DNA from: Phenylobacterium sp.
GTDB taxonomy: Bacteria > Pseudomonadota > Alphaproteobacteria > Caulobacterales > Caulobacteraceae
DNA: 64,000 bases
Assembly: GCA_045802455.1 (NCBI GenBank)
Contig: JBJMQX010000154.1
Coordinates: forward strand, 6,925 to 70,924
Direction of reading: 5' to 3'
Position 1 is the first letter of the stretch, and each line of letters starts with the position of its first letter. Made by a program: the position numbers and the translations under genes. This document shows, piece by piece, positions 5,406-60,260 of the stretch. A model generated the notes under the pieces. The model searched no databases, was not told the DNA's origin, and saw only the letters and a list, made by a program, of their open reading frames with translations.

Positions 5406-6409
5406 GACGGTTCTTCGAGCCTCTGTGCGACTGCTGCAACGGCGGTTTCAGGATGGCCGAGGCCGATCCGCGGTCCGCCGACCGCCCCGACGCCATGAGC
5501 GAGGCCGAACTCCAAGCCCTGTTCGACACGGTCTCGAACTGGGGCCGCTGGGGCCCGGCCGACGAGCGCGGCACGCTGAACCACATCACCGGCGCCGAAG
5601 TCGTGCGCGCCGCTGGGCTCGTGCGCGAAGGCCGCACGATCAGCCTGTCCCGGAACTTCCCGACCGAGCCGGGTCCGGAAAACCCCTGGCCCGCACAGCA
5701 CCACATGATGATCGCCGGGGATGACCCGTGCGTGCCGGGGCTGGATGGCCTGGAGACCGTCACCGACTACATCGGCATCGCCTTCCACGGCATGGCTTCC
5801 AGCCATATCGACGCACTGTGCCACGTGTTCGCCAAGGGCCAGATGTACAACGGACGGCCGGGGACTGAGGTGAAGAGCACCGGGGCGCGGGCCAACACCA
5901 TCATGGCGCTGAAGGACGGTGTGGTTTCGCGCGGCGTTCTGCTGGACATTCCGCGGGCGCTGAACGTCGCTTACGTCGAGGCAGACCGGTTTGTCACGAT
6001 AGCGGACCTGGAGACCGCCGAGCAGGCGGCTGGCGTTGCGGTCGGCAAGGGCGACATCCTAATCGTCCGTTTCGGGCGCGACCCGCGCCGCGCCGCCAAA
6101 AAGGACCAGTTGGTGCCCGGCATGCACCCGCGCGTCTGCGAATGGCTGCATGCGCGGGAGGTGGCGGTGCTGGGCGGCGATGGCGTCTCGGACCCGATTC
6201 CGCCGGGGCAGCTCCATCGCGACTGGGCGATGCCGATCCACGCGATCGCGCTCGCCGGCATGGGCTTGCACCTTCTGGACAATCTCGACCTCGAGCCGCT
6301 CGCACAAATCTGCGAGTCGCTGAGCCGCTGGGAATTTCAGCTGGCGCTCGCCCCCCTACGCATCGAAGGCGGCACGGGCTCGCCTCTCAACCCGATCGCG
6401 GTGTTCTAG
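5402..6409 (+). CDS. Cyclase family protein (kynurenine-formamidase-like fold)
   Basis: WGPADERGTLNHIT and FHGMASSHIDALCH resemble the HxGTHxDxPxH metal motif of the putative cyclase family. ATGA start/stop overlap with the VOC gene. Confidence 0.75.
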   Translation: MRRFFEPLCDCCNGGFRMAEADPRSADRPDAMSEAELQALFDTVSNWGRWGPADERGTLNHITGAEVVRAAGLVREGRTISLSRNFPTEPGPENPWPAQHHMMIAGDDPCVPGLDGLETVTDYIGIAFHGMASSHIDALCHVFAKGQMYNGRPGTEVKSTGARANTIMALKDGVVSRGVLLDIPRALNVAYVEADRFVTIADLETAEQAAGVAVGKGDILIVRFGRDPRRAAKKDQLVPGMHPRVCEWLHAREVAVLGGDGVSDPIPPGQLHRDWAMPIHAIALAGMGLHLLDNLDLEPLAQICESLSRWEFQLALAPLRIEGGTGSPLNPIAVF

Positions 6410-6452
6410 GCATGCGCACGCGCTGCCTGCCGCAGCCTACCCCCGACCCGAT

Positions 6453-6470
6453 ACATAACGCTCGTTATGT
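6453..6470. promoter_or_regulatory. Perfect palindrome ACATAAC-GCTC-GTTATGT upstream of the LLM oxidoreductase gene
   Basis: Ends 24 nt upstream of the start at 6495. Same half-site as the two sites at 2496..2546. Confidence 0.55.
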
Positions 6471-6494
6471 CCTGCCCAGCCCCGGGAGCCGCTC

Positions 6495-7694
6495 ATGAAG
6501 TTCGACGTGTTCTGCGAGATCCAACGGGCCTTCCCCTGGAACGGCAAGGATGAGGCGAGCCTGTTCAGCGAGGTGCTGGCCCAGGCGCGCGCGGCCGAGG
6601 CGGCGGGCTTCGAAATCTGGTGGGAGGTGGAACACCACGGCGCGCCGGAGTTCAGCTACTCCTCCGCGCCCGACCTCGTGCTGACCGCGATCGCCATGGC
6701 GACCAGCACGCTGCGCGTCGGCCACGCTGGCGTGCTCGCCCCGTTCCGCATCAACGCTCCGCTGCGGATCGCCGAACGCGGCGCGACGCTGGACCTGATA
6801 TCGAACGGCCGCTTGGAGCTCGGCCTGGCCAAGTCGGGTGGCAAGGAGTGGGAGACTTTCGGGGTCAACCCGGACACCGCGCGCGACCAGGTGCGCGACG
6901 CCATGCGCATGATCCCGCGCATGTGGACGGAGAAGGAGTTCGCCTGGAAATCCGCCGACTACGAGCTGCCCCCGCGCGAGGTCACGCCGAAGCCGCTGCA
7001 GAAGCCGCATCCGAGGCTCTGGCAGACGTGCGGCTCGCCCGATAGCTTCTACATGGCCGGCGAACTGGGCGTCGGCGCGCTGGGCACGACCCTGCTCAGC
7101 CCCGTGGCCTTTCTGGGCCAGATGCTGCGCGAGCACGACCGCGGGCTCGCCGACTGCAAGCAGCCCGCTGGGGCGGCTGTCAACGCGCAGAAGGGCGTCT
7201 TCACCTTCGTGCACGTGGCCGAGGATCGCGCCGCGGCGATCCGCAACGGCGCCGCGTGGTCGGCGCTCTGGTACGTCAACTCCGCACCGGTGGTGTTCAA
7301 GGTGCCGCGGCGCATCTGGTACGACATGATCAAGGCCGGCCTGCATCCGAACTCGGCCCGCGACACCGCCGCCGGCGAGCTGGATCCGCACGAGGTCGAG
7401 ATCCAGCCCGACGACCCTGAGGTGGTGAAGGTGCTCAAGCGCATGGCGGTGGGAGAGACAATCAGCTTCGAGGAGGCGCACGAAGCGCTGGAGCCGCTCG
7501 ACAGTGTGGTGATCGGAGATCCGGAGCAGTGCATCGGCAAGCTGAAAGCCTACGAGGGCATCGGGGCCGACCGTATGATGTGTCTGATGCAGTACGGCGC
7601 TATCCCTCAAGAGGCGGTGCTGAGGAGCATCGAGCTGGCTGGCCGGACCTTGGTGCCGGCGTTCGCGAACAAGGCACGGGCGCCGGCGGCGTGA
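6495..7694 (+). CDS. LLM-class flavin-dependent oxidoreductase (luciferase-like monooxygenase)
   Basis: N-terminus MKFDVFCEI...AEAAGFEIWWEVEHHGAPEFSYSSAPDLVL...GRLELGLAKSGG is typical of luciferase-like monooxygenases. Confidence 0.9.
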   Translation: MKFDVFCEIQRAFPWNGKDEASLFSEVLAQARAAEAAGFEIWWEVEHHGAPEFSYSSAPDLVLTAIAMATSTLRVGHAGVLAPFRINAPLRIAERGATLDLISNGRLELGLAKSGGKEWETFGVNPDTARDQVRDAMRMIPRMWTEKEFAWKSADYELPPREVTPKPLQKPHPRLWQTCGSPDSFYMAGELGVGALGTTLLSPVAFLGQMLREHDRGLADCKQPAGAAVNAQKGVFTFVHVAEDRAAAIRNGAAWSALWYVNSAPVVFKVPRRIWYDMIKAGLHPNSARDTAAGELDPHEVEIQPDDPEVVKVLKRMAVGETISFEEAHEALEPLDSVVIGDPEQCIGKLKAYEGIGADRMMCLMQYGAIPQEAVLRSIELAGRTLVPAFANKARAPAA

Positions 7695-51718: not shown

Positions 51719-53212
51719 CTAATCCGTTGGATGCAACCACTTCGGCAGGAGATCATGGGGGTCGACGTCGGGCCACGCGCTCAACGTCATGCCAGTGCGC
51801 TCCATGAGCTTGCGGAGCCGTCCGCTGCTGTAGGCACCCAAGGTTTCCCCGCACCCGCCGACGAACTCACCGCCCACGAAGACCTGCGGGATCGTCGCAA
51901 AGCCGGTCCTGACCTCGAGAGCCTGGCGGATGCGCCGGCCAAGTTCGTCCTTCTGCAACGCCACGGAGTCGATATCCACGGAGCGGAACGGAATCTCCAG
52001 TCGGCGAAACAGCTCGCGAACCGACGAACAGAAGTCGCACCACTTGAGGCTGAACAGGACCACCGGCTGGTCCGCATCGGCGAGGGCCTCGCCGATGAGC
52101 TTTTCGGCTTCCGGATCGGCCACAATGGCGTTCTGCGGCGCCCTGTTCGGCGCGGTCGCTGGGAGCTGGGGCGCGGCGTCGAACCGCGCCGACGGGGTGG
52201 AGCGCGAAATCTCCAGCTCGGCCGGCGACATGTCGGCCGGCACATCGTCGAACAGCGGGGTCGACAGATACCTTTCTCCGGTATCGGCGAGCATGCACAG
52301 GATCGAGGAGCCTTCCGGCGCACGCTGCGCAACGCTCAGGGCGCCGGCGAGCACGGCGCCCGACGAAATGCCGACGAACACGCCCTCCGCCTGAGCGAGC
52401 TGGCGAGCCAGGCGAACGGATTGCGCCGCGTCCACGGGCACGATCTCGTCGACCAGGCCCTGCGCCATCGCGTCGGACGTGAGCTTGGAGATGAAGTCGG
52501 GGCTCACCCCCTGGATCGGATGCGGTCGGAAGCTCGGGTGGCTGGCCAGCCCGGGACCCGCCGAGGCCGGCTGCGGAACGCCGCTGCCCATCACCTGCGC
52601 ATTGTCCGGTTCGACCGCGATGATGCGGGTCTCGGGCCGGGCGGCGCGCAGTCCTCGCGCGACCCCCTTCAGGGTGCCGCCGCTGCCCACCGCGGTGATG
52701 AAGTAGTCCAGCCGCTCGCCTTCGAAATCACGGATGATTTCCCGGGCGGTGTATTCGGTGTGCGCGTCGGCGTTCGCTTCGTTCTCGAACTGCCGCGTCA
52801 GGAACCAGCCGTGCGCCTCGGCAAGCTCAACGGCTTTCAGATACATGCCGCTGCCCTTCTGGGCCGCCGGCGTCAGGACCACCTGCGCGCCCAGGAAACG
52901 CATCAGGCGGCGGCGCTCCACGCTGAAGCTCTCTGCCATGGTGATGACCAGCGGATAGCCCTTCACCGCGCAGACCATCGCCAAACCGATGCCGGTGTTG
53001 CCGCTGGTGGCTTCGATCACGGTCTGGCCGGGCTGCAGCCGACCCTCTCGTTCCGCCCGTTCGATGACGGCGAGCGCCAGGCGGTCCTTCACCGAGCCCA
53101 TCGGGTTGAAGCATTCCAGCTTGCCGAAGAGCCGGACGCCGGGTGGCGCGAGCTTTGACAACTCGACGACTGGGGTGTCGCCGATGGTGTGCAGGACCGA
53201 GCGGTGTTTCAT
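51719..53212 (-). CDS. CysK/CysM-like fold-type II PLP enzyme fused to a C-terminal glutaredoxin domain
   Basis: Start moved to MKHRSVLHTIGDTPVV (Met56 of the track ORF). NPMGSVKDR, TSGNTGIG, then a linker and WCDFC (52028..52039) ... TIPQVFVGGEFVGG. Confidence 0.85.
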   Translation of the reverse strand: MKHRSVLHTIGDTPVVELSKLAPPGVRLFGKLECFNPMGSVKDRLALAVIERAEREGRLQPGQTVIEATSGNTGIGLAMVCAVKGYPLVITMAESFSVERRRLMRFLGAQVVLTPAAQKGSGMYLKAVELAEAHGWFLTRQFENEANADAHTEYTAREIIRDFEGERLDYFITAVGSGGTLKGVARGLRAARPETRIIAVEPDNAQVMGSGVPQPASAGPGLASHPSFRPHPIQGVSPDFISKLTSDAMAQGLVDEIVPVDAAQSVRLARQLAQAEGVFVGISSGAVLAGALSVAQRAPEGSSILCMLADTGERYLSTPLFDDVPADMSPAELEISRSTPSARFDAAPQLPATAPNRAPQNAIVADPEAEKLIGEALADADQPVVLFSLKWCDFCSSVRELFRRLEIPFRSVDIDSVALQKDELGRRIRQALEVRTGFATIPQVFVGGEFVGGCGETLGAYSSGRLRKLMERTGMTLSAWPDVDPHDLLPKWLHPTD

Positions 53213-54717
53213 CGGGCTTCCTCCTGGTCCTGCATGACCAGGACGTCGGTGTTGGCGTGCTTGCGGTTCCGCACCAGCCGCCACGCGTGCAGGACGGCGC
53301 CGGCGAGGCGGTCTATGTCGGCCGGGGTCAGCGGGCCTGAAATGATCGAGAACCGCAGAACCCAGCGGTCGCGCCATGAGGCCCCCGCGGCAAAGCAGAC
53401 GTTCTCTTCCTGCAGCTGCGCGATGACCGCGCGGGTCGCTGCGTCGCGCTCATCCGCCGGGCCTTCCCCGAAGCCGACGATGACCTGGTTGAGGACCACC
53501 GAATTGATGACCCGGACACCGGCCTCGCCGGCCAGCCGTTCCGCCAGCCGACGGGCCAGAGCGCAGTGGCGGCGCACCATCTCGATGACGCCCTGACGCC
53601 CGAGGGTCCGCAGCATCGCCCAGACGGCGAAGCCACGCGCGCGGCGGGACAGCTCCGGCGCGAACTGCGCGGGGTCATATTCGTCGTCCGCCGCCGGTGG
53701 AAGGTAGCTGGCGACAATCGACATCGCGGCGCGGTGAACGCCGCGGTCGCGGACGATGGCGAAGCCGCAGTCGTACGGGAGCTGGAGCCATTTGTGGCCG
53801 TCCGTGGACCAGGAGTCGGCCTGGTCGAGCCCGGCTGTCAGAGGCTCCATTTCGGGGACGGCGCGGGCCCACAGACCGAATGCGCCGTCGACGTGAAGCC
53901 AGGCGCCGTGGGCCCTGCAGGCTTCGGCGATCGCCGGCATCGGATCGAACGCGCCCGTGTTGATCTGGCCGGCCTGCGCCATGACGATGGCCGGGCCGTT
54001 GCCGACCGCGAGCGCCGCCGAGAGGGCGTCGGCGTCCATTCGTCCCTCGGCGTCGCAAGGAATGACCGCCGTGCGGGCTCCGAAGCCGAGGTAGCGCAGG
54101 GCCGACGTGATCGTCGAATGAGCCTCGGCGCCGAGGAACAGCCGCACGGCCGGCGCGCCGGTCAGCCCCGCCTCTTCGACGTCCCAGCCGACCCGCGCCA
54201 GCACGGCGTTGCGCGCCGCGGCCAGGCAGACGAAGCTCGCCATCGTCGCGCCCGTCACGAACCCCACGGAGCATTCGGGAGGCAGGCGCAGGATATTCAA
54301 GAGCCAGCGGGAACTGACCTTCTCCGCCATCGCCGCCGAGGGCGCGAGGGCGTAGTTGCCGGCATTCTGGCCCCAGGCGCTGGTCATCATGTCGGCGGCG
54401 ACGCCGACCGGATGCGAGGCGCCCACCACCCAGCCGAAGAAGCGTGTTCCGCCGACCCCCGATAGGCCCGGCTCCGCGGCCCAGGCGAGGCTGTCGATGA
54501 CGCTGACGCCATCCTCGCCGGCCTCCGGCGTGGGGCCGTCGAAGCGGCGATGCAGCTCCGCAGCGGGACAGGTCGGCCGCGGGGGACCGTCTGTGAGCGC
54601 GTTGCGAAACCCGATCGCATGGTGGAGCGCCCGGGCGAAGTGGGCGTGGTGGGCGGAGCCGGCCTGCGCGGACGAGCTCGCCCCCGCACCCTGCTCGAGG
54701 CGGGAGGCAGTTTTCAT
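53209..54717 (-). CDS. Group II pyridoxal-dependent decarboxylase family protein
   Basis: STDGHKWLQLPYDCGF (PLP lysine context). GFVTGATMASFVCLAAAR. ATGA overlap with the downstream CysK-like gene. Confidence 0.85.
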   Translation of the reverse strand: MKTASRLEQGAGASSSAQAGSAHHAHFARALHHAIGFRNALTDGPPRPTCPAAELHRRFDGPTPEAGEDGVSVIDSLAWAAEPGLSGVGGTRFFGWVVGASHPVGVAADMMTSAWGQNAGNYALAPSAAMAEKVSSRWLLNILRLPPECSVGFVTGATMASFVCLAAARNAVLARVGWDVEEAGLTGAPAVRLFLGAEAHSTITSALRYLGFGARTAVIPCDAEGRMDADALSAALAVGNGPAIVMAQAGQINTGAFDPMPAIAEACRAHGAWLHVDGAFGLWARAVPEMEPLTAGLDQADSWSTDGHKWLQLPYDCGFAIVRDRGVHRAAMSIVASYLPPAADDEYDPAQFAPELSRRARGFAVWAMLRTLGRQGVIEMVRRHCALARRLAERLAGEAGVRVINSVVLNQVIVGFGEGPADERDAATRAVIAQLQEENVCFAAGASWRDRWVLRFSIISGPLTPADIDRLAGAVLHAWRLVRNRKHANTDVLVMQDQEEAR

Positions 54718-54735
54718 GGAAGGAGTCCGTCCCGG

Positions 54736-55662
54736 TCAGGAAAAGGTCGGCGCCGCCGCGGCGATCGTGTCGCGCATCCGCGGGCTGAGCTCGCCGAGCG
54801 TTTCGAGGAACTTCGGGTGCGACATGCCCGAGCCGATGTAGGTCCACCGGTTGGCCTGGTGCTGGACGTGGGTGAAGGCGGCGCTCTGATCCTCGTCGAG
54901 CGTGCGGCCGATGGCCCGCTCCAGCGCCACCATGTCGAAGAGCACCTGGTGCTTCAGGCCCTCGTCCAGGAAGGCGCCCAGCGCCAGGTAGCCTTCGATC
55001 CCGGCCTGGATATCCGCCTCGCTCATGCCATCGGCGATGGTGCGGACCATCAGGGTGTCCAGCTGGGCGTGTTGGTATTCCTCCATCCAGTGATGCAGCA
55101 GGAGGTCCTTGAACTGGGCGTCCAGGTCGCCGGCGTCGCGCACGCTCTCCTGGAAGTGGCGCTGGGTCATCCACTCGATGTGCAAGGTGAGCAGGGCCAC
55201 CGAAAGCGGCGGGCGTGACAGGACGTTGGCGGCGATGTCCGCGGGCGGACCGATCACGTTGCAGGCGACGCCGAAACCGGCCGTGAAGGCCTCACGGAAG
55301 CGGCGGAACAGGTGGATGTGCTTGGCTTCCTCGGCGGCGAACTCGAGGAAGGCGCGGGCCCGGTAGTCCTCGCCGTTGATGTACGGACGCGCGTGGTCGA
55401 GCACGAACGGCAGGATGAACTCCTCGACCAGGCCGAAGATGCCCAGATAGGCGTGGCCGCGGATCTGGTTGAGCTTCAGCTGCTCATTGGGCGAGAGGAA
55501 GACCAGCTGGGTCGCCCGCGCCAGGCTCTCAGGCATGAACGCCTTCGAGAAGTCGAGCCGCTTGTCGTCGTTGATCAGATCTTCGACCCGCCAGGTAATG
55601 CGCTCCGCGCGCTCCAGGCAGTCCTTGAAGGTGTAGGGATAGGTCATCGCGGGTCGCTCCAT
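54736..55662 (-). CDS. Ferritin-like di-iron oxygenase, AurF/CmlI-like
   Basis: Di-iron ligand pattern: LVEEF, AAEEAKHIH (ExxH), HIEW, HHWMEEYQH (Hx3Ex2H). Confidence 0.7.
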   Translation of the reverse strand: MERPAMTYPYTFKDCLERAERITWRVEDLINDDKRLDFSKAFMPESLARATQLVFLSPNEQLKLNQIRGHAYLGIFGLVEEFILPFVLDHARPYINGEDYRARAFLEFAAEEAKHIHLFRRFREAFTAGFGVACNVIGPPADIAANVLSRPPLSVALLTLHIEWMTQRHFQESVRDAGDLDAQFKDLLLHHWMEEYQHAQLDTLMVRTIADGMSEADIQAGIEGYLALGAFLDEGLKHQVLFDMVALERAIGRTLDEDQSAAFTHVQHQANRWTYIGSGMSHPKFLETLGELSPRMRDTIAAAAPTFS

Positions 55663-55777
55663 GGGACGCCGGGCGTCCGTTTGCGGGGCCGACCTTCTAG
55701 GGGCAGGCGCGACGGGGCCGAATGACTGGTCCGCCTAATGACTTGACTGTTCCGCCTGGGCTGTCGCGAATCTGGAC

Positions 55778-56737
55778 ATGGACGCCCTCTCGGATGTGCT
55801 CAGGATCGTCGATCTCTCCGGCGGCGTGTTCATCGATGCGGAATTCACCGATCCCTGGTGGGTGGCCGGCCAGGTGTCGCCGGAATCGTGCCGTCCGTTC
55901 ATGGTCCCGCCGGCGCAGGTGGTGTCGTTCCACTATGTCGTCGAGGGCCGCTTCGAGCTGCGGCTGTGCGACGAGCCTGCCCTGAGCGTCGCCGCCGGCG
56001 AGGCGATCATGATGGCGCGCAATGACCTGCACGTGTTCGGCACGCCCGGCGTCAGCACCCGGCCTGTCGGCATGAGCGAGCTGATTCAGCCGCCGGGCGC
56101 GCAGGGCGTGGCCACGGTCGTGCACGGCGGCGGCGGCGCACGGACGCGTCTGGTCTGCGGCTTCATGGGCGGCAACGCCCAGCTGCGGCCCCTGCTGGAC
56201 AGCCTGCCGGCGGCGATGAAGATCGAGGTGGCCGACCTGCCCGGCGGCGACTGGATCGGCCGCACCTTCAGCTATGCCGCCCAGACGCTGAGCGACGGCG
56301 ACCCCGGCGCCGCGACCGTGCTCGCCAAGCTGTCGGAACTGCTGTTCGTGGAGTCCGTCCGCCGCTACCTGGCTGGTCTGCCGGACGAGCAGACGGGCTG
56401 GCTGGCGGGGCTGCGCGATCCGGTGGTCGGCCGGGCGCTGTCCGTCCTGCATTCCCGGGTGGCCGAGCCCTGGACGGCCGAGGCGCTGGCCGGGGAGGTG
56501 AACATGTCCCGCTCCGCCTTCGCCGACCGCTTCACGACCATCACCGGCCAGCCGCCGATGCGCTACCTGACCGGCTGGCGGATGCAGCTGGCCCGGACCT
56601 ACCTGGCCGAAACCCGCCGCACCGTGGCCCAGATCGCCTTCGAGGTCGGCTACGAGTCCGAGGCCGCATTCAGCCGCGCGTTCCGTCGCGAGTGCGGACA
56701 ACCACCCGCCACCTGGCGACGCCAAGCCGTGAGCTAG
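55778..56737 (+). CDS. AraC-family transcriptional regulator (cupin-like N-domain)
   Basis: C-terminal double HTH (WTAEALAGEVNMSRSAFADRFTTITGQPPMRYLTGWRMQLARTYL...VAQIAFEVGYESEAAFSRAFRRECG). Confidence 0.9.
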   Translation: MDALSDVLRIVDLSGGVFIDAEFTDPWWVAGQVSPESCRPFMVPPAQVVSFHYVVEGRFELRLCDEPALSVAAGEAIMMARNDLHVFGTPGVSTRPVGMSELIQPPGAQGVATVVHGGGGARTRLVCGFMGGNAQLRPLLDSLPAAMKIEVADLPGGDWIGRTFSYAAQTLSDGDPGAATVLAKLSELLFVESVRRYLAGLPDEQTGWLAGLRDPVVGRALSVLHSRVAEPWTAEALAGEVNMSRSAFADRFTTITGQPPMRYLTGWRMQLARTYLAETRRTVAQIAFEVGYESEAAFSRAFRRECGQPPATWRRQAVS

Positions 56738-56837
56738 CGGCCCGGCGTCCCGGCCAAGAATGCCGGGGGCTCGGTCATTCCTTCCCGACCCCGCCCGGCC
56801 CAGGTTCGCCGCCACACATGGTCGAGAGCCGAACCCA

Positions 56838-57266
56838 ATGAACCTTTCCCTCTGGATGCTGCTGGCGTTCGCCGGCTGGACGCTGATGGTGCTGCTGGTC
56901 GGCGTCGGCGTGTACCGCTGGAAGCTGATCCTCACCGGCCGGGCGATGCTGACCAGCTTCCCGGGCGACACGCCGCATGGCGCGCCGGCCTACCGCCGGG
57001 CGACGCGGGCGCACGCCAACTGCATCGAGAACCTGCCCGTGTTCGCGGCCATTATCCTGACAGCGGCCGCAGCCGGCATCGCGCCGCCGCAGATGGGGCC
57101 GCTCGCCGTCGCCACCGTGGCCGCGCGCGTCGTGCAGACCTCGATCCATATGGGCCTGCCGGAATCGAACCTGACGATCGGCGTGCGGTTTTCCTTCTAT
57201 ACGGTCCAGGCCCTGGCGATGATCGCGATGACGGTGCTCATCGTGCTCGCCGCGGCCGCGCGCTGA
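56838..57266 (+). CDS. MAPEG-family membrane protein
   Basis: Start moved to MNLSLWMLLAFAGW. RATRAHANCIENLPVF matches the MAPEG pattern. Four TM segments. Confidence 0.7.
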   Translation: MNLSLWMLLAFAGWTLMVLLVGVGVYRWKLILTGRAMLTSFPGDTPHGAPAYRRATRAHANCIENLPVFAAIILTAAAAGIAPPQMGPLAVATVAARVVQTSIHMGLPESNLTIGVRFSFYTVQALAMIAMTVLIVLAAAAR

Positions 57267-59036: not shown

Positions 59037-60260
59037 CTAGGTCTCCACCTGCGCATGGGTCGCGCCGATGGCCGCCGCGATCATCGCCTTCTGAACCGAT
59101 GGAAGGCGGTAGAGCAGGACCGAACGGGCCGCATGCCTGCCGGCCGTGACGGTGCGCTTGACCCATCCCAGGTAGGACTCCTCCGGCAGATACTGCGGGT
59201 GTTCGGTGGAAATGCCCTTCAGCCCCGCCTCCTTCAGAACGCGGGCCTCAGCCGGCGTGAAGTCCTCCAGGTGCCCGACGACGAACAGCGAGGAGGGTGC
59301 GATCATCATGGCCGCGGACTGCAGCGTCGTCGTCGGTACGCCCTCGATTTCCCGCAGTTCGCAGATCAGGCCACGGCTTGCGTAGCCGCGCGCCTGCTGG
59401 AAGGCGCTCACGATGCGGGCGCGGTCGTCGAGGTTCGAGAGGCTGGAAAACGAGACCGGCAAGATGAGCGCCGGCGGCGGTTGCTTTGCCGCTCTGGCGC
59501 GCACGTCCCGCAGGCCGATGGCGATGGTGCCCAGGTCGATCCGCAGCCGGTCGCTCCGCGAAAGCCGGGCTATTTCGGCGCCCTCAAATTCCCGTCCGGA
59601 GACTCCATCGGCGACCGAGCGCCTGAACCGAAGACCGATGACCTGGTTGCCCTTCAGCTCGCGGACGACGTCGACGGAACACCGGACGTCGACCTGGCAT
59701 CCGTTGGAGGCCACGAACGGCGTCCACACCGATACGGGGCCCAGCAGCGAATTCGGCGTGTCGGCGGACAGCGACGGCGTCGACGGCGCCTCCTCCTCCG
59801 CGCCCTCACTGGTCCGCAGATCAATGGGGCGGGCTTCAACGCCGGTCGGCGTGACCTGCAGCACCTCGTGCACCGTAAGATCAGCGGGCTCTGCGGCGCC
59901 CAGGAAGTGGGTCAGGATCTCGCGCAGCACACGCACGCAGAACGCCTGGCCGGCCAGCCGGCTAAGCTCCGGCTGGCAGATCAGGATGTCGGTTTCCGAG
60001 ATGCGCAGGTGGTAGCCATGCAATCCGATCTGACGATCGAGGAGTGCGTGGATGTGGGCGTGCACGTGCTCGCCGCGCGCCGGCCATCGGCTTCCGAAGC
60101 GCTGCGCCACGGCGTCGAGGCCGATCAGGTTGACCTTGCCGCTGGCCAAGACCTCCGGATTGGCAAAATGCTCAAGCGCGGCATCCAGCCCCGGCGACAA
60201 CAGCCGCTTGACCAACGGCTCGAAGGCCAGATCCGGCAATGTTTGCGGCAAGGCGCTCAT
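59037..60260 (-). CDS. Hypothetical protein (407 aa). The C-terminal half may be a degenerate EAL-like fold.
   Basis: Ordinary composition and a clean ATG. I recognise no family. LILPVSFSSLSN / ICELREIEG / VVGHLEDF loosely recall the EAL blocks. Confidence 0.65.
   Translation of the reverse strand: MSALPQTLPDLAFEPLVKRLLSPGLDAALEHFANPEVLASGKVNLIGLDAVAQRFGSRWPARGEHVHAHIHALLDRQIGLHGYHLRISETDILICQPELSRLAGQAFCVRVLREILTHFLGAAEPADLTVHEVLQVTPTGVEARPIDLRTSEGAEEEAPSTPSLSADTPNSLLGPVSVWTPFVASNGCQVDVRCSVDVVRELKGNQVIGLRFRRSVADGVSGREFEGAEIARLSRSDRLRIDLGTIAIGLRDVRARAAKQPPPALILPVSFSSLSNLDDRARIVSAFQQARGYASRGLICELREIEGVPTTTLQSAAMMIAPSSLFVVGHLEDFTPAEARVLKEAGLKGISTEHPQYLPEESYLGWVKRTVTAGRHAARSVLLYRLPSVQKAMIAAAIGATHAQVET

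Follow-up and report, generated by a model that had tools for sequence, protein, structure and literature searches.

We studied a stretch of 64,000 nucleotides (nt) of Phenylobacterium sp. DNA (the window), in which three tightly packed genes on the minus strand face a divergent gene for an AraC-family regulator. The three genes encode a di-iron protein (g1), a decarboxylase (g2), and a CysK-glutaredoxin fusion protein (g3). An initial annotation, made from the sequence, had proposed the trio as a candidate cryptic metabolite pathway, with g1 as the third, amine-oxidizing step. Our comparison of the locus with its relatives suggests instead that these genes are exchangeable cargo of a stress regulon with an RclR-like regulator.

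Gene content and gene models

The list of open reading frames (ORFs) agreed with the layout of three packed minus-strand genes opposite the AraC gene. The four genes are as follows.

51719-53212, minus strand: g3, a CysK-like pyridoxal phosphate (PLP) beta-replacement domain (residues 1 to about 335), a Pro/Ala-rich linker, and a dithiol glutaredoxin (CDFC); from Pfam
53209-54717, minus strand: g2, a group II PLP-dependent amino-acid decarboxylase; Pfam Pyridoxal_deC (PF00282), 154.9 bits
54736-55647, minus strand: g1, a predicted 303-aa ferritin-like di-metal carboxylate protein; invariant ligands, sub-threshold Pfam AurF match, AlphaFold (AF2) helical bundle
55778-56737, plus strand: AraC-family regulator gene, divergent from g1, RclR-like with an N-terminal Cupin_6 domain; ORF list, Pfam Cupin_6 105.3 bits and HTH_18 82.1 bits

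The minus-strand ORFs span 54736-55662 (g1), 53209-54717 (g2), and 51719-53212 (g3, from an internal ATG). The spacing between g1 and g2 is 18 nt, and the stop codon of g2 and the start codon of g3 overlap in a shared ATGA at 53209-53212. The single transcription unit that had been predicted from this packing was borne out. However, the start of g1 had been placed at 55662, where the ATG overlaps the Shine-Dalgarno sequence GGAG (55660-55657), and the g1 homologues are all 303 aa long with the N-terminus MTY(Q/P)Y. Thus, the probable start is 55647, 15 nt further in, and the region between g1 and the regulator gene becomes 130 bp rather than 115 bp. Every motif quoted in the initial annotation (LVEEF, AAEEAKHIH, HIEW, HHWMEEYQH, STDGHKWLQLPYDCG, NPMGSVKDR, and TSGNTG) was found in the ORF translations, and Pfam gave the same domain calls for g2, g3, and the AraC-type regulator. 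In addition, for each of g1, g2, and g3 there is a record with 100% identity in a metagenome-assembled genome of a Phenylobacterium sp., and homologues number in the thousands; they are real, conserved proteins.

The terminator scan found no intrinsic terminator 3' of g3, and its sole terminator-like match lies within g1 on the opposite strand. The sigma-70 promoter scan of the locus found no promoter. A mobile island was rejected because the GC content is uniform across the region (0.66-0.72).

The regulator and its putative operator

The best NCBIfam model for the regulator is RclR, at 103.7 bits against a cut-off of 400 bits, and BLASTP gave 29% identity to Escherichia coli RclR over residues 123-316. 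Three residues (H52, H85, and C127) are invariant in 33 orthologues. C127 aligns with C89 of E. coli RclR, and the N-terminal region with C21 did not align. For comparison, E. coli RclR and the proven RclR of Pseudomonas aeruginosa share only 30% identity, and the gene that the latter activates next to its own is a different, thiol-peroxidase-like one (PMC7950407).

When the intergenic regions between the AraC gene and g1 were aligned, a conserved putative operator was seen, GGCG-N4-RGTCAAG-N6-GGCG-N4-RRTCATT, which is made of two direct repeats with a period of 21 bp. The window has two matches to it, against 0.02 expected by chance. The promoter elements are as follows.

55721-55756, minus strand: operator O1, GGCGGAACAGTCAAG-N6-GGCGGACCAGTCATT; exact pattern match, facing g1, 73 nt upstream of the g1 start
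55694-55701, minus strand: probable -10 element of the g1-g2-g3 promoter, CCTAGAAG; conservation of CTAGA
56744-56779, plus strand: operator O2, with two mismatches; between the araC stop codon and the MAPEG gene, facing the MAPEG operon

The CTAGA is kept at the same distance from the operator (20 nt downstream) in eight aligned intergenic regions, and it resembles the Caulobacter sigma-73 -10 consensus.

Across the fetched loci, 36 operator sites lie upstream of cargo genes. The first gene 3' of the operator is g1 at 17 of these sites, MAPEG at 9, OsmC at 8, and an SCO4226-like gene followed by g2 and g3 at 2. Separate operator sites for separate cargo genes were seen in L009, L011, L027, L029, and L033, and sites equivalent to O2 lie upstream of MAPEG in L001, L081, L014, L027, L029, and L033. 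In the window, the second operator faces an operon of MAPEG, cupin, and flavoprotein genes. Thus, two units with no fewer than six cargo genes would make up the regulon of the window.

g1 is a protein on the edge of the AurF family

The Pfam AurF (PF11583) score of g1 is 20.6-20.7 bits, under the gathering threshold of 29.6 bits, and this model matches all 18 of the 18 close homologues, mostly below the threshold as well. Relatives at 30-48% identity exceed the threshold, with 33-45 bits. Thus, g1 is a peripheral relative of AurF. In the 18-member alignment, E75/E76, E106/E107-x2-H110, E158, and H186-x3-E190-x2-H193 are invariant, and a seven-ligand site (4 Glu, 3 His) with the spacing E...ExxH...E...HxxxExxH is present in the family. 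This is the spacing of the AurF/CmlI site, which also has four Glu and three His.

No meaningful match, and neither AurF nor CmlI, was obtained in a PDB sequence search with the single g1 sequence or the family profile. The AF2 model (pLDDT 83) is a helical bundle, and its best Foldseek matches are R2lox (E 6e-4, TM about 0.45, identity about 16%), the ribonucleotide reductase (RNR) R2/NrdF proteins, and acyl-ACP desaturases. AurF and CmlI are absent from the top 50 matches of this model. Judged from the model, the fold common to g1 and these proteins is shared at the superfamily level only. The name AurF-like in the initial annotation is supported in part: the ligand motifs and the place at the family edge speak for it, whereas the sub-threshold Pfam score and the nearest structures, which are R2lox and RNR R2 rather than AurF, speak against it. 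We describe g1 as a ferritin-like di-metal carboxylate protein on the edge of the AurF family, and it is predicted to be an enzyme. An exhaustive homologue search gave 1277 clusters (50% identity) at E <= 1e-3 and 206 clusters at E <= 1e-30.

g1 is often accompanied by OsmC

The scan for g1 took one genome per species, and neighbours were counted within 7 kb on either side of g1 in the 80 best loci. At least 415 species carry a g1 relative, across Alphaproteobacteria, Acidobacteriota, and Planctomycetota. An OsmC-like gene (PF02566) adjoins g1 in 35 of the 80 loci, an AraC regulator gene adjoins it in 30, and a MAPEG gene is near it in 17. By comparison, g2 adjoins g1 in one locus (L031) and g3 in none of the 80. 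Other recurrent neighbours are genes for GNAT, methyltransferase, HxlR, ECF sigma with a kinase, and SARP-type regulators, and some of the neighbours (OYE, GNAT, HxlR, and ECF sigma genes) are of the redox or electrophile-defence type. An OsmC gene also adjoins g1 on a Nostoc plasmid. In addition, there are natural g1-OsmC fusion proteins, P0370 (522 aa) and P0398 (505 aa), which represent two clusters at 50% identity and keep the ligand residues. This frequent adjacency, together with the natural fusions, indicates that the conserved partner of g1 is OsmC, not g2 or g3.

Closer relatives show how the cargo next to g1 is exchanged. In L002 and L003, whose g1 is 77-79% identical to that of the window, an OsmC gene fills the slot 3' of g1 where the window has g2 and g3. 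L081 (89% g1 identity) has the layout of the window with the full trio, and the trio was found in the window and L081 only among the loci compared. In L082 (85% g1 identity and 93% g3 identity), g1 is directly followed by g3 and g2 is missing. The contig of P0134 likewise has AraC, g1, and g3 and is missing g2, and two further short contigs are inferred to have the same order of g1 then g3. Finally, L171-L173 (73-80% g1 identity) lack both g2 and g3, and have a gene for an OYE-type reductase nearby.

These results bear on the idea of one dedicated pathway in this clade, in which g3 would make a beta-substituted alanine, g2 would decarboxylate it, and g1 would N- or S-oxygenate the amine to a specialized small molecule under AraC control. 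The genes are indeed tightly packed and translationally coupled, and the trio is kept in L081. Furthermore, every pair of them occurs somewhere: g1 with g2 in L031, g1 with g3 in L082 and on the P0134 contig, and g2 with g3 in L083 and L174. The three-His, four-carboxylate pattern of g1, which is like that of the AurF/CmlI N-oxygenases, would also suit such a step. However, the trio is limited to two near-identical lineages, the close relative L082 does without g2, and g1 occurs overwhelmingly without g2 and g3 and pairs or fuses with OsmC. In addition, the same operator appears to drive OsmC and MAPEG independently, which argues for the logic of a regulon rather than that of a pathway. No biosynthetic hallmark gene (transporter, nonribosomal peptide or polyketide synthase, or resistance gene) lies near the trio among the ORFs and Pfam matches of the window. 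We thus consider one dedicated pathway the least probable of the readings weighed here. The proposed third, amine-oxidizing step of g1 is not supported by the neighbour counts, the synteny that had been set as a test of the pathway largely breaks down in related genomes, and the locus is not good evidence for a cryptic biosynthetic cluster.

The link with OsmC suggests another explanation, in which a thiol-redox protein would be the redox partner of g1 (the OsmC-like protein or, in this clade, the glutaredoxin of g3). It would deliver electrons or reduce a product of the peroxide or sulfenate type. Such a role would account for the g3 fusion lying 3' of g1, at the place held by OsmC in sister genomes. 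It agrees with the 35 of 80 loci in which OsmC adjoins g1, with the g1-OsmC fusion proteins, with the OsmC genes of L002 and L003 at exactly the place of g2 and g3, and with the direct order of g1 then g3 in L082, on the P0134 contig, and, by inference, on the two short contigs. On the other hand, these arguments are positional alone, the fusion family occurs mostly without g1, OsmC and g1 are often under separate operators, and the CysK domain is left without a role. A redox partnership of this kind seems rather improbable to us, by a little less so than the dedicated pathway.

The OsmC-like neighbours of g1 (for example L003:7988-8566 and L015:6413-6985) are about 190 aa long, with an N-terminal extension, and they keep the first Cys (NPxELLLxxLxxC). 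In nine such neighbours compared, Ser-Pro is found at the position of the second Cys. Classical OsmC/Ohr proteins have a second (resolving) Cys at this position; since Ser-Pro replaces it, the OsmC-like partners of g1 look like 1-Cys variants. Their top NCBIfam match is 'OsmC-related (seleno)protein', below the cut-off. The cultured species Phenylobacterium terrae CGMCC 1.16326 has two g1 paralogues, L018 and L035 (67% and 63% identical to g1 of the window), about 1.8 Mb apart on one 2.8-Mb contig, and an OsmC-like gene and the operator are near L018 only. In one cluster (P0462), a g1-type di-iron domain is fused to a response-regulator receiver domain.

The CysK-glutaredoxin fusion

In g3, Pfam found PALP (243.6 bits) and Glutaredoxin (PF00462, 55.9 bits). 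The NCBIfam models cysK (334.3 bits; cut-off 350.95) and cysM (222.4 bits; cut-off 394.2) were both missed. The best PDB match of the PLP domain is DcsD (3x43, 303 bits). However, g3 has a loop insertion of 15 aa ahead of the H-x-IQG loop, which is seen in neither DcsD nor CysK. A D-cycloserine-type pathway was rejected despite the DcsD match, for there are no other dcs genes here and the g3 loop differs.

The fusion family is large, with members at 61% identity or more over the full length, and its records are labelled Phenylobacterium and Gammaproteobacteria. The Schiff-base K42 (SVKDR) and TSGNTG (T69-G74) are invariant in the family. Furthermore, W-C392-x-F-C395, TIPQ, and GG, that is, the CxxC and the glutathione-binding motifs of glutaredoxin (Grx), are invariant in 18 fusion proteins, and the C-terminal tail LLPxWL is conserved. 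Unfused homologues, which are about 346-350 aa long and 61-66% identical to g3, have the 15-aa insertion and an ISRSTP tail in common with the fusions. Thus, the Grx domain was joined onto a distinct long-loop CysK subfamily, which is probably a distinct isozyme class. The unfused subfamily is widespread, being found in the metagenomic loci L125-L169 and on Paracoccus and Ensifer plasmids, and its records are annotated as cysK or as 'pyridoxal-phosphate dependent enzyme'.

The 36 metagenomic fusion loci are a sample and not the nearest relatives of g3, and half of the loci of the metagenome scan were unfused CysK homologues. None of the 36 fusion loci has g1 or the AraC gene, and 34 of them have neither g1 nor a g2-like gene adjoining. 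Clustering of the neighbours around the fusion gave no conserved partner beyond lineage-specific synteny.

The decarboxylase and its link with the fusion

The best PDB matches of g2 are DOPA decarboxylase (7xin, 140.8 bits), GADL1 (113.6 bits), and CSAD (100.7 bits). The PLP-Lys (DGHKW), the stacking His (AHST), HVDGAF, and the loop-Tyr (DDEYD) align with 7xin, 4obu, and 6khn. By its sequence, g2 is predicted to be a true group II decarboxylase, since it carries all of the catalytic hallmarks. Its substrate is not readable from the alignments to the PDB decarboxylases, and no NCBIfam equivalog was reached, the best being DABA decarboxylase (103 bits; cut-off 900 bits).

The pair of g2 and g3 recurs in other settings. 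Phenylobacterium sp. LjRoot225 (L083/L084) has g2 then g3 as in the window, with the same AraC type and operator and without g1. In the sampled fusion loci, a g2-type decarboxylase lies directly downstream of the fusion in 2 of 36 (L094 and L111). L111 has the reversed order (g3 then g2) with overlapping stop and start codons, and the gap between fusion and decarboxylase in L094 is 9 nt. Meanwhile, on plasmid pLA3 of a cultured organism, Novosphingobium pentaromativorans US6-1 (L174), the fusion is followed by a decarboxylase 47% identical to g2, with a 4-nt overlap. The decarboxylases that adjoin fusions are 46-53% identical to g2. That the pair recurs in both orders, with translation coupled, speaks for a functional module of two genes. 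Thus, the part of the initial annotation that tied a beta-replacement enzyme to a decarboxylase gained support from separate lineages.

Two of these loci deserve a further remark. In L083, a 100-aa SCO4226-like protein (6223-6525; nickel-responsive family, PF14026) replaces g1 as the first gene after the operator. The pLA3 locus covers 260775-274238 of the plasmid, and upstream of the pair it encodes two FAD oxidoreductases, a truncated haemoglobin of group 1, an adenylate/guanylate cyclase, a hybrid histidine kinase with a PAS domain, and a response regulator of the OmpR type. Such surroundings hint at the sensing of gas or redox state, and the regulator differs from that of the window.

It could also be that there is no metabolic coupling at all. 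In that case, g3 would be a cysteine synthase isozyme that depends on sulfide, is induced by stress, and carries a general-purpose Grx, and g2 (acting, for instance, in amine or pH homeostasis) and g1 (an unrelated oxidase) would share with it nothing but the promoter. The score of g3 near the CysK equivalog cut-off (334 vs 351 bits) would fit this, and so would the 34 of 36 sampled fusions without a trio partner nearby. Several g2 homologues have no trio partner nearby either; L087 and L088 stand alone beside LuxR-type regulators. In addition, unfused long-loop CysK homologues are common, and some are annotated cysK. However, the adjacency of g2 and g3 in two orders, with overlapping codons, in both Caulobacterales and Sphingomonadales would rarely arise by chance, and the strict conservation of the Grx CxxC and of the C-terminal tail argues for a dedicated role of the Grx. 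We consider this explanation unlikely, but it is the strongest of the alternatives.

The probable MAPEG operon and the leader of g1

The genes behind O2 and the leader of g1 are as follows.

56838-57266, plus strand: MAPEG-family membrane glutathione-transferase-like protein; Pfam MAPEG 49.8 bits, homologues 141-146 aa
57281-57934, plus strand: ChrR-type cupin protein without an anti-sigma domain; Pfam Cupin_7 (two matched stretches), 151.5 bits
57936-59006, plus strand: oxidoreductase of the flavin amine-oxidase/phytoene-desaturase family; Pfam Amino_oxidase 148.7 bits
55657-55678, minus strand: 5' untranslated region (UTR) of g1, with the hairpin GGACGCC/GGCGTCC at 55678-55664 and the Shine-Dalgarno GGAG at 55660-55657; from the sequence

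The probable start of MAPEG is M27 of the ORF that begins at 56760. The gap between the MAPEG and cupin genes is 14 nt, and the flavoprotein gene has a GTG start 1 nt past the cupin stop; the three genes probably form an operon behind O2. The ChrR-type cupin gene has the same position in L081 and L082, and the flavoprotein gene is not conserved at this position in either of them. In NCBIfam, none of the MAPEG, cupin, flavoprotein, and OsmC-like proteins received a specific assignment. Just past this operon, a 407-aa ORF (59037-60260, minus strand) has no match in Pfam or NCBIfam.

The leader has a GC-rich hairpin 2-4 nt ahead of the Shine-Dalgarno of g1, and seven close relatives (including L001, L081, L082, L002, L003, and L020) have hairpins at the same position with different stems. 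Most of the predicted folds have an outer helix in which part of the GGAG is paired. The hairpin may be a translational or mRNA-stability element. Its statistics are weak: the covariation of the consensus fold is weak, and the z-scores of single sequences are mostly non-significant in the GC-rich background.

A proposed exchangeable-cargo stress regulon

Taken together, a regulon with exchangeable cargo fits the data better than a linear three-enzyme pathway. We propose that the locus belongs to an RclR-like regulon for oxidant or electrophile stress, in which one Caulobacteraceae clade joins a di-iron enzyme to a sulfur-amino-acid module, and we give this a probability of about 55%. The RclR-like AraC/Cupin_6 activator would bind the predicted operator, which would abut or overlap the -35 region of the target promoters. 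It would sense an oxidant or electrophile and activate defence genes, with O1 driving g1, g2, and g3, and O2 driving the genes for MAPEG, the ChrR-type cupin protein, and the flavoprotein. The core of the regulon may be g1 with a 1-Cys OsmC-like thiol protein as its usual partner. In one Caulobacteraceae clade, the module of g2 and g3, or g3 alone, would have taken the slot downstream of g1 that is held by OsmC in sister genomes.

What the data show directly are the gene structures, the domains, the operator with its distribution, and the modular synteny. The signal is presumed to be an oxidant or electrophile, and all of the enzyme chemistry is presumed as well; for the module we suggest the following. 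In g3, the CysK-like domain probably joins a sulfur nucleophile, most economically an oxidized one, to O-acetylserine (or O-phosphoserine). The tethered, glutathione-dependent Grx would then reduce the S-sulfo or persulfide/disulfide product in cis to a free thiol, and g2 would decarboxylate the derived sulfur amino acid, giving a small amine (cysteamine, hypotaurine, or taurine type). The chemical steps of g3 and g2 are guesses, and the sequence favours neither CysM-like nor CSAD-like specificity.

Several points weigh against this proposal. First, the fusion need not work with g2, because most CysK-Grx fusions stand alone. Second, the use of thiosulfate is not indicated by the sequence, since the PLP domain of g3 resembles CysK and DcsD more than CysM. 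Third, g2 as a whole resembles CSAD and GADL1 less than it resembles aromatic amino-acid decarboxylases, so a sulfur-amino-acid substrate is a guess. Fourth, just one of the two sensing cysteines of RclR could be aligned, and the NCBIfam score (103.7 vs 400) falls well short of the cut-off. Operator binding by the regulator is predicted, and the nature of the signal is presumed. Finally, all of the pairwise adjacencies (g1-g2, g1-g3, and g2-g3) occur, and a three-enzyme pathway with frequent gene loss could give the same pattern.

A bolder version would see here two undescribed systems joined, both induced by the RclR-like sensor. In the first, g1 with a 1-Cys OsmC-like or Grx partner would carry out a thiol-partnered detoxification of oxidants or electrophiles that is widespread in Alphaproteobacteria, Acidobacteriota, Planctomycetota, and Cyanobacteria. 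In the second, the CysK-Grx fusion and the decarboxylase would turn oxidized sulfur (thiosulfate or persulfide) into a protective amino-thiol or sulfinate, with cysteamine, hypotaurine, and taurine as candidates. That both hold together is quite unlikely in our view, more so than the absence of metabolic coupling and slightly less so than the redox partnership of g1.

Under the proposed exchangeable-cargo regulon, what is known is the RclR-type stress regulon and what is new is the cargo; this is not an already characterized pathway. The initial annotation did not recognize the combination, and searches of the literature on CysK-Grx fusions, on DcsD-like enzymes with Grx, on Cupin_6 regulators, and on di-iron, OsmC, or MAPEG regulons turned up no account of this system; we found no description of the regulon, of the g1 family, or of the CysK-Grx fusion. 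The analysis defines a testable regulon whose operator is explicit, whose regulator shares one conserved cysteine with RclR, and whose cargo is flexible. It also brings out two large uncharacterized cargo families. One is the di-metal protein at the periphery of AurF, which pairs and fuses with OsmC, and the other is the fusion of CysK and glutaredoxin, which occurs in both Alpha- and Gammaproteobacteria. If the chemistry is true, responses to reactive chlorine, electrophiles, or reactive sulfur would extend past E. coli and Pseudomonas, cysteine could be made from oxidized sulfur by one polypeptide, and a bacterial source of small sulfur amines would be indicated. For genome mining, the locus is a caution, as the pathway implied by tight packing in one genome is unsupported by wider synteny.

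Comparison with known systems

g1 is like the AurF/CmlI N-oxygenases in its predicted ferritin-like helical bundle and in a ligand spacing that is invariant in its family. However, g1 is set among stress-defence genes (OsmC and MAPEG) and not in antibiotic biosynthesis. R2lox, the top structural match of the g1 model (E 6e-4), is likewise a di-metal carboxylate protein that stands alone; it binds a fatty acid as its ligand, and its physiological function is not established. The likeness is distant (TM about 0.45, identity about 16%), and for g1 nothing points to a Mn/Fe cofactor or a lipid ligand.

DcsD, the O-ureido-L-serine synthase of the D-cycloserine pathway, is the best PDB sequence match to the PLP domain of g3. 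Unlike g3, it has no loop insertion and no Grx domain, and its TSGNVG stands where g3 has TSGNTG. The chemistry suggested for g3 has a precedent in the E. coli CysM route (PMC3528435), where S-sulfocysteine made by CysM is converted to cysteine and sulfite and reductases of the Grx, Trx, and NrdH type are candidate reducers; Trx/Grx-type reductases were tested for this conversion. A PLP beta-replacement enzyme is thus combined with a glutaredoxin-type reductant, and g3 would join both in one polypeptide. However, the PLP domain of g3 is nearer to CysK and DcsD, the 15-aa loop insertion is specific to its subfamily, and the use of thiosulfate by g3 is hypothetical. As in the taurine and hypotaurine routes of CSAD and GADL1, g2 is a group II decarboxylase (100-114 bits to CSAD/GADL1), and its gene recurs beside one for a cysteine-synthase-like protein. 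It differs in its higher score against aromatic decarboxylases (141 bits), and there is no cysteine dioxygenase gene nearby.

The closest parallel to the locus as a whole is given by the RclR regulons of E. coli (RclR-rclABC) and P. aeruginosa (RclR-rclX). The cargo in the window (di-iron protein, OsmC-like protein in the relatives, MAPEG, CysK-Grx, and decarboxylase) is not RclABC or the AhpD-like RclX, an equivalent of Cys21 was not found in the regulator of the window, whose N-terminus did not align, and the inducer here is hypothetical. Nevertheless, a cupin-AraC regulator adjoins, and probably activates, thiol and redox defence genes in each case, and among the proven RclR systems the cargo also varies between species (PMC7950407).

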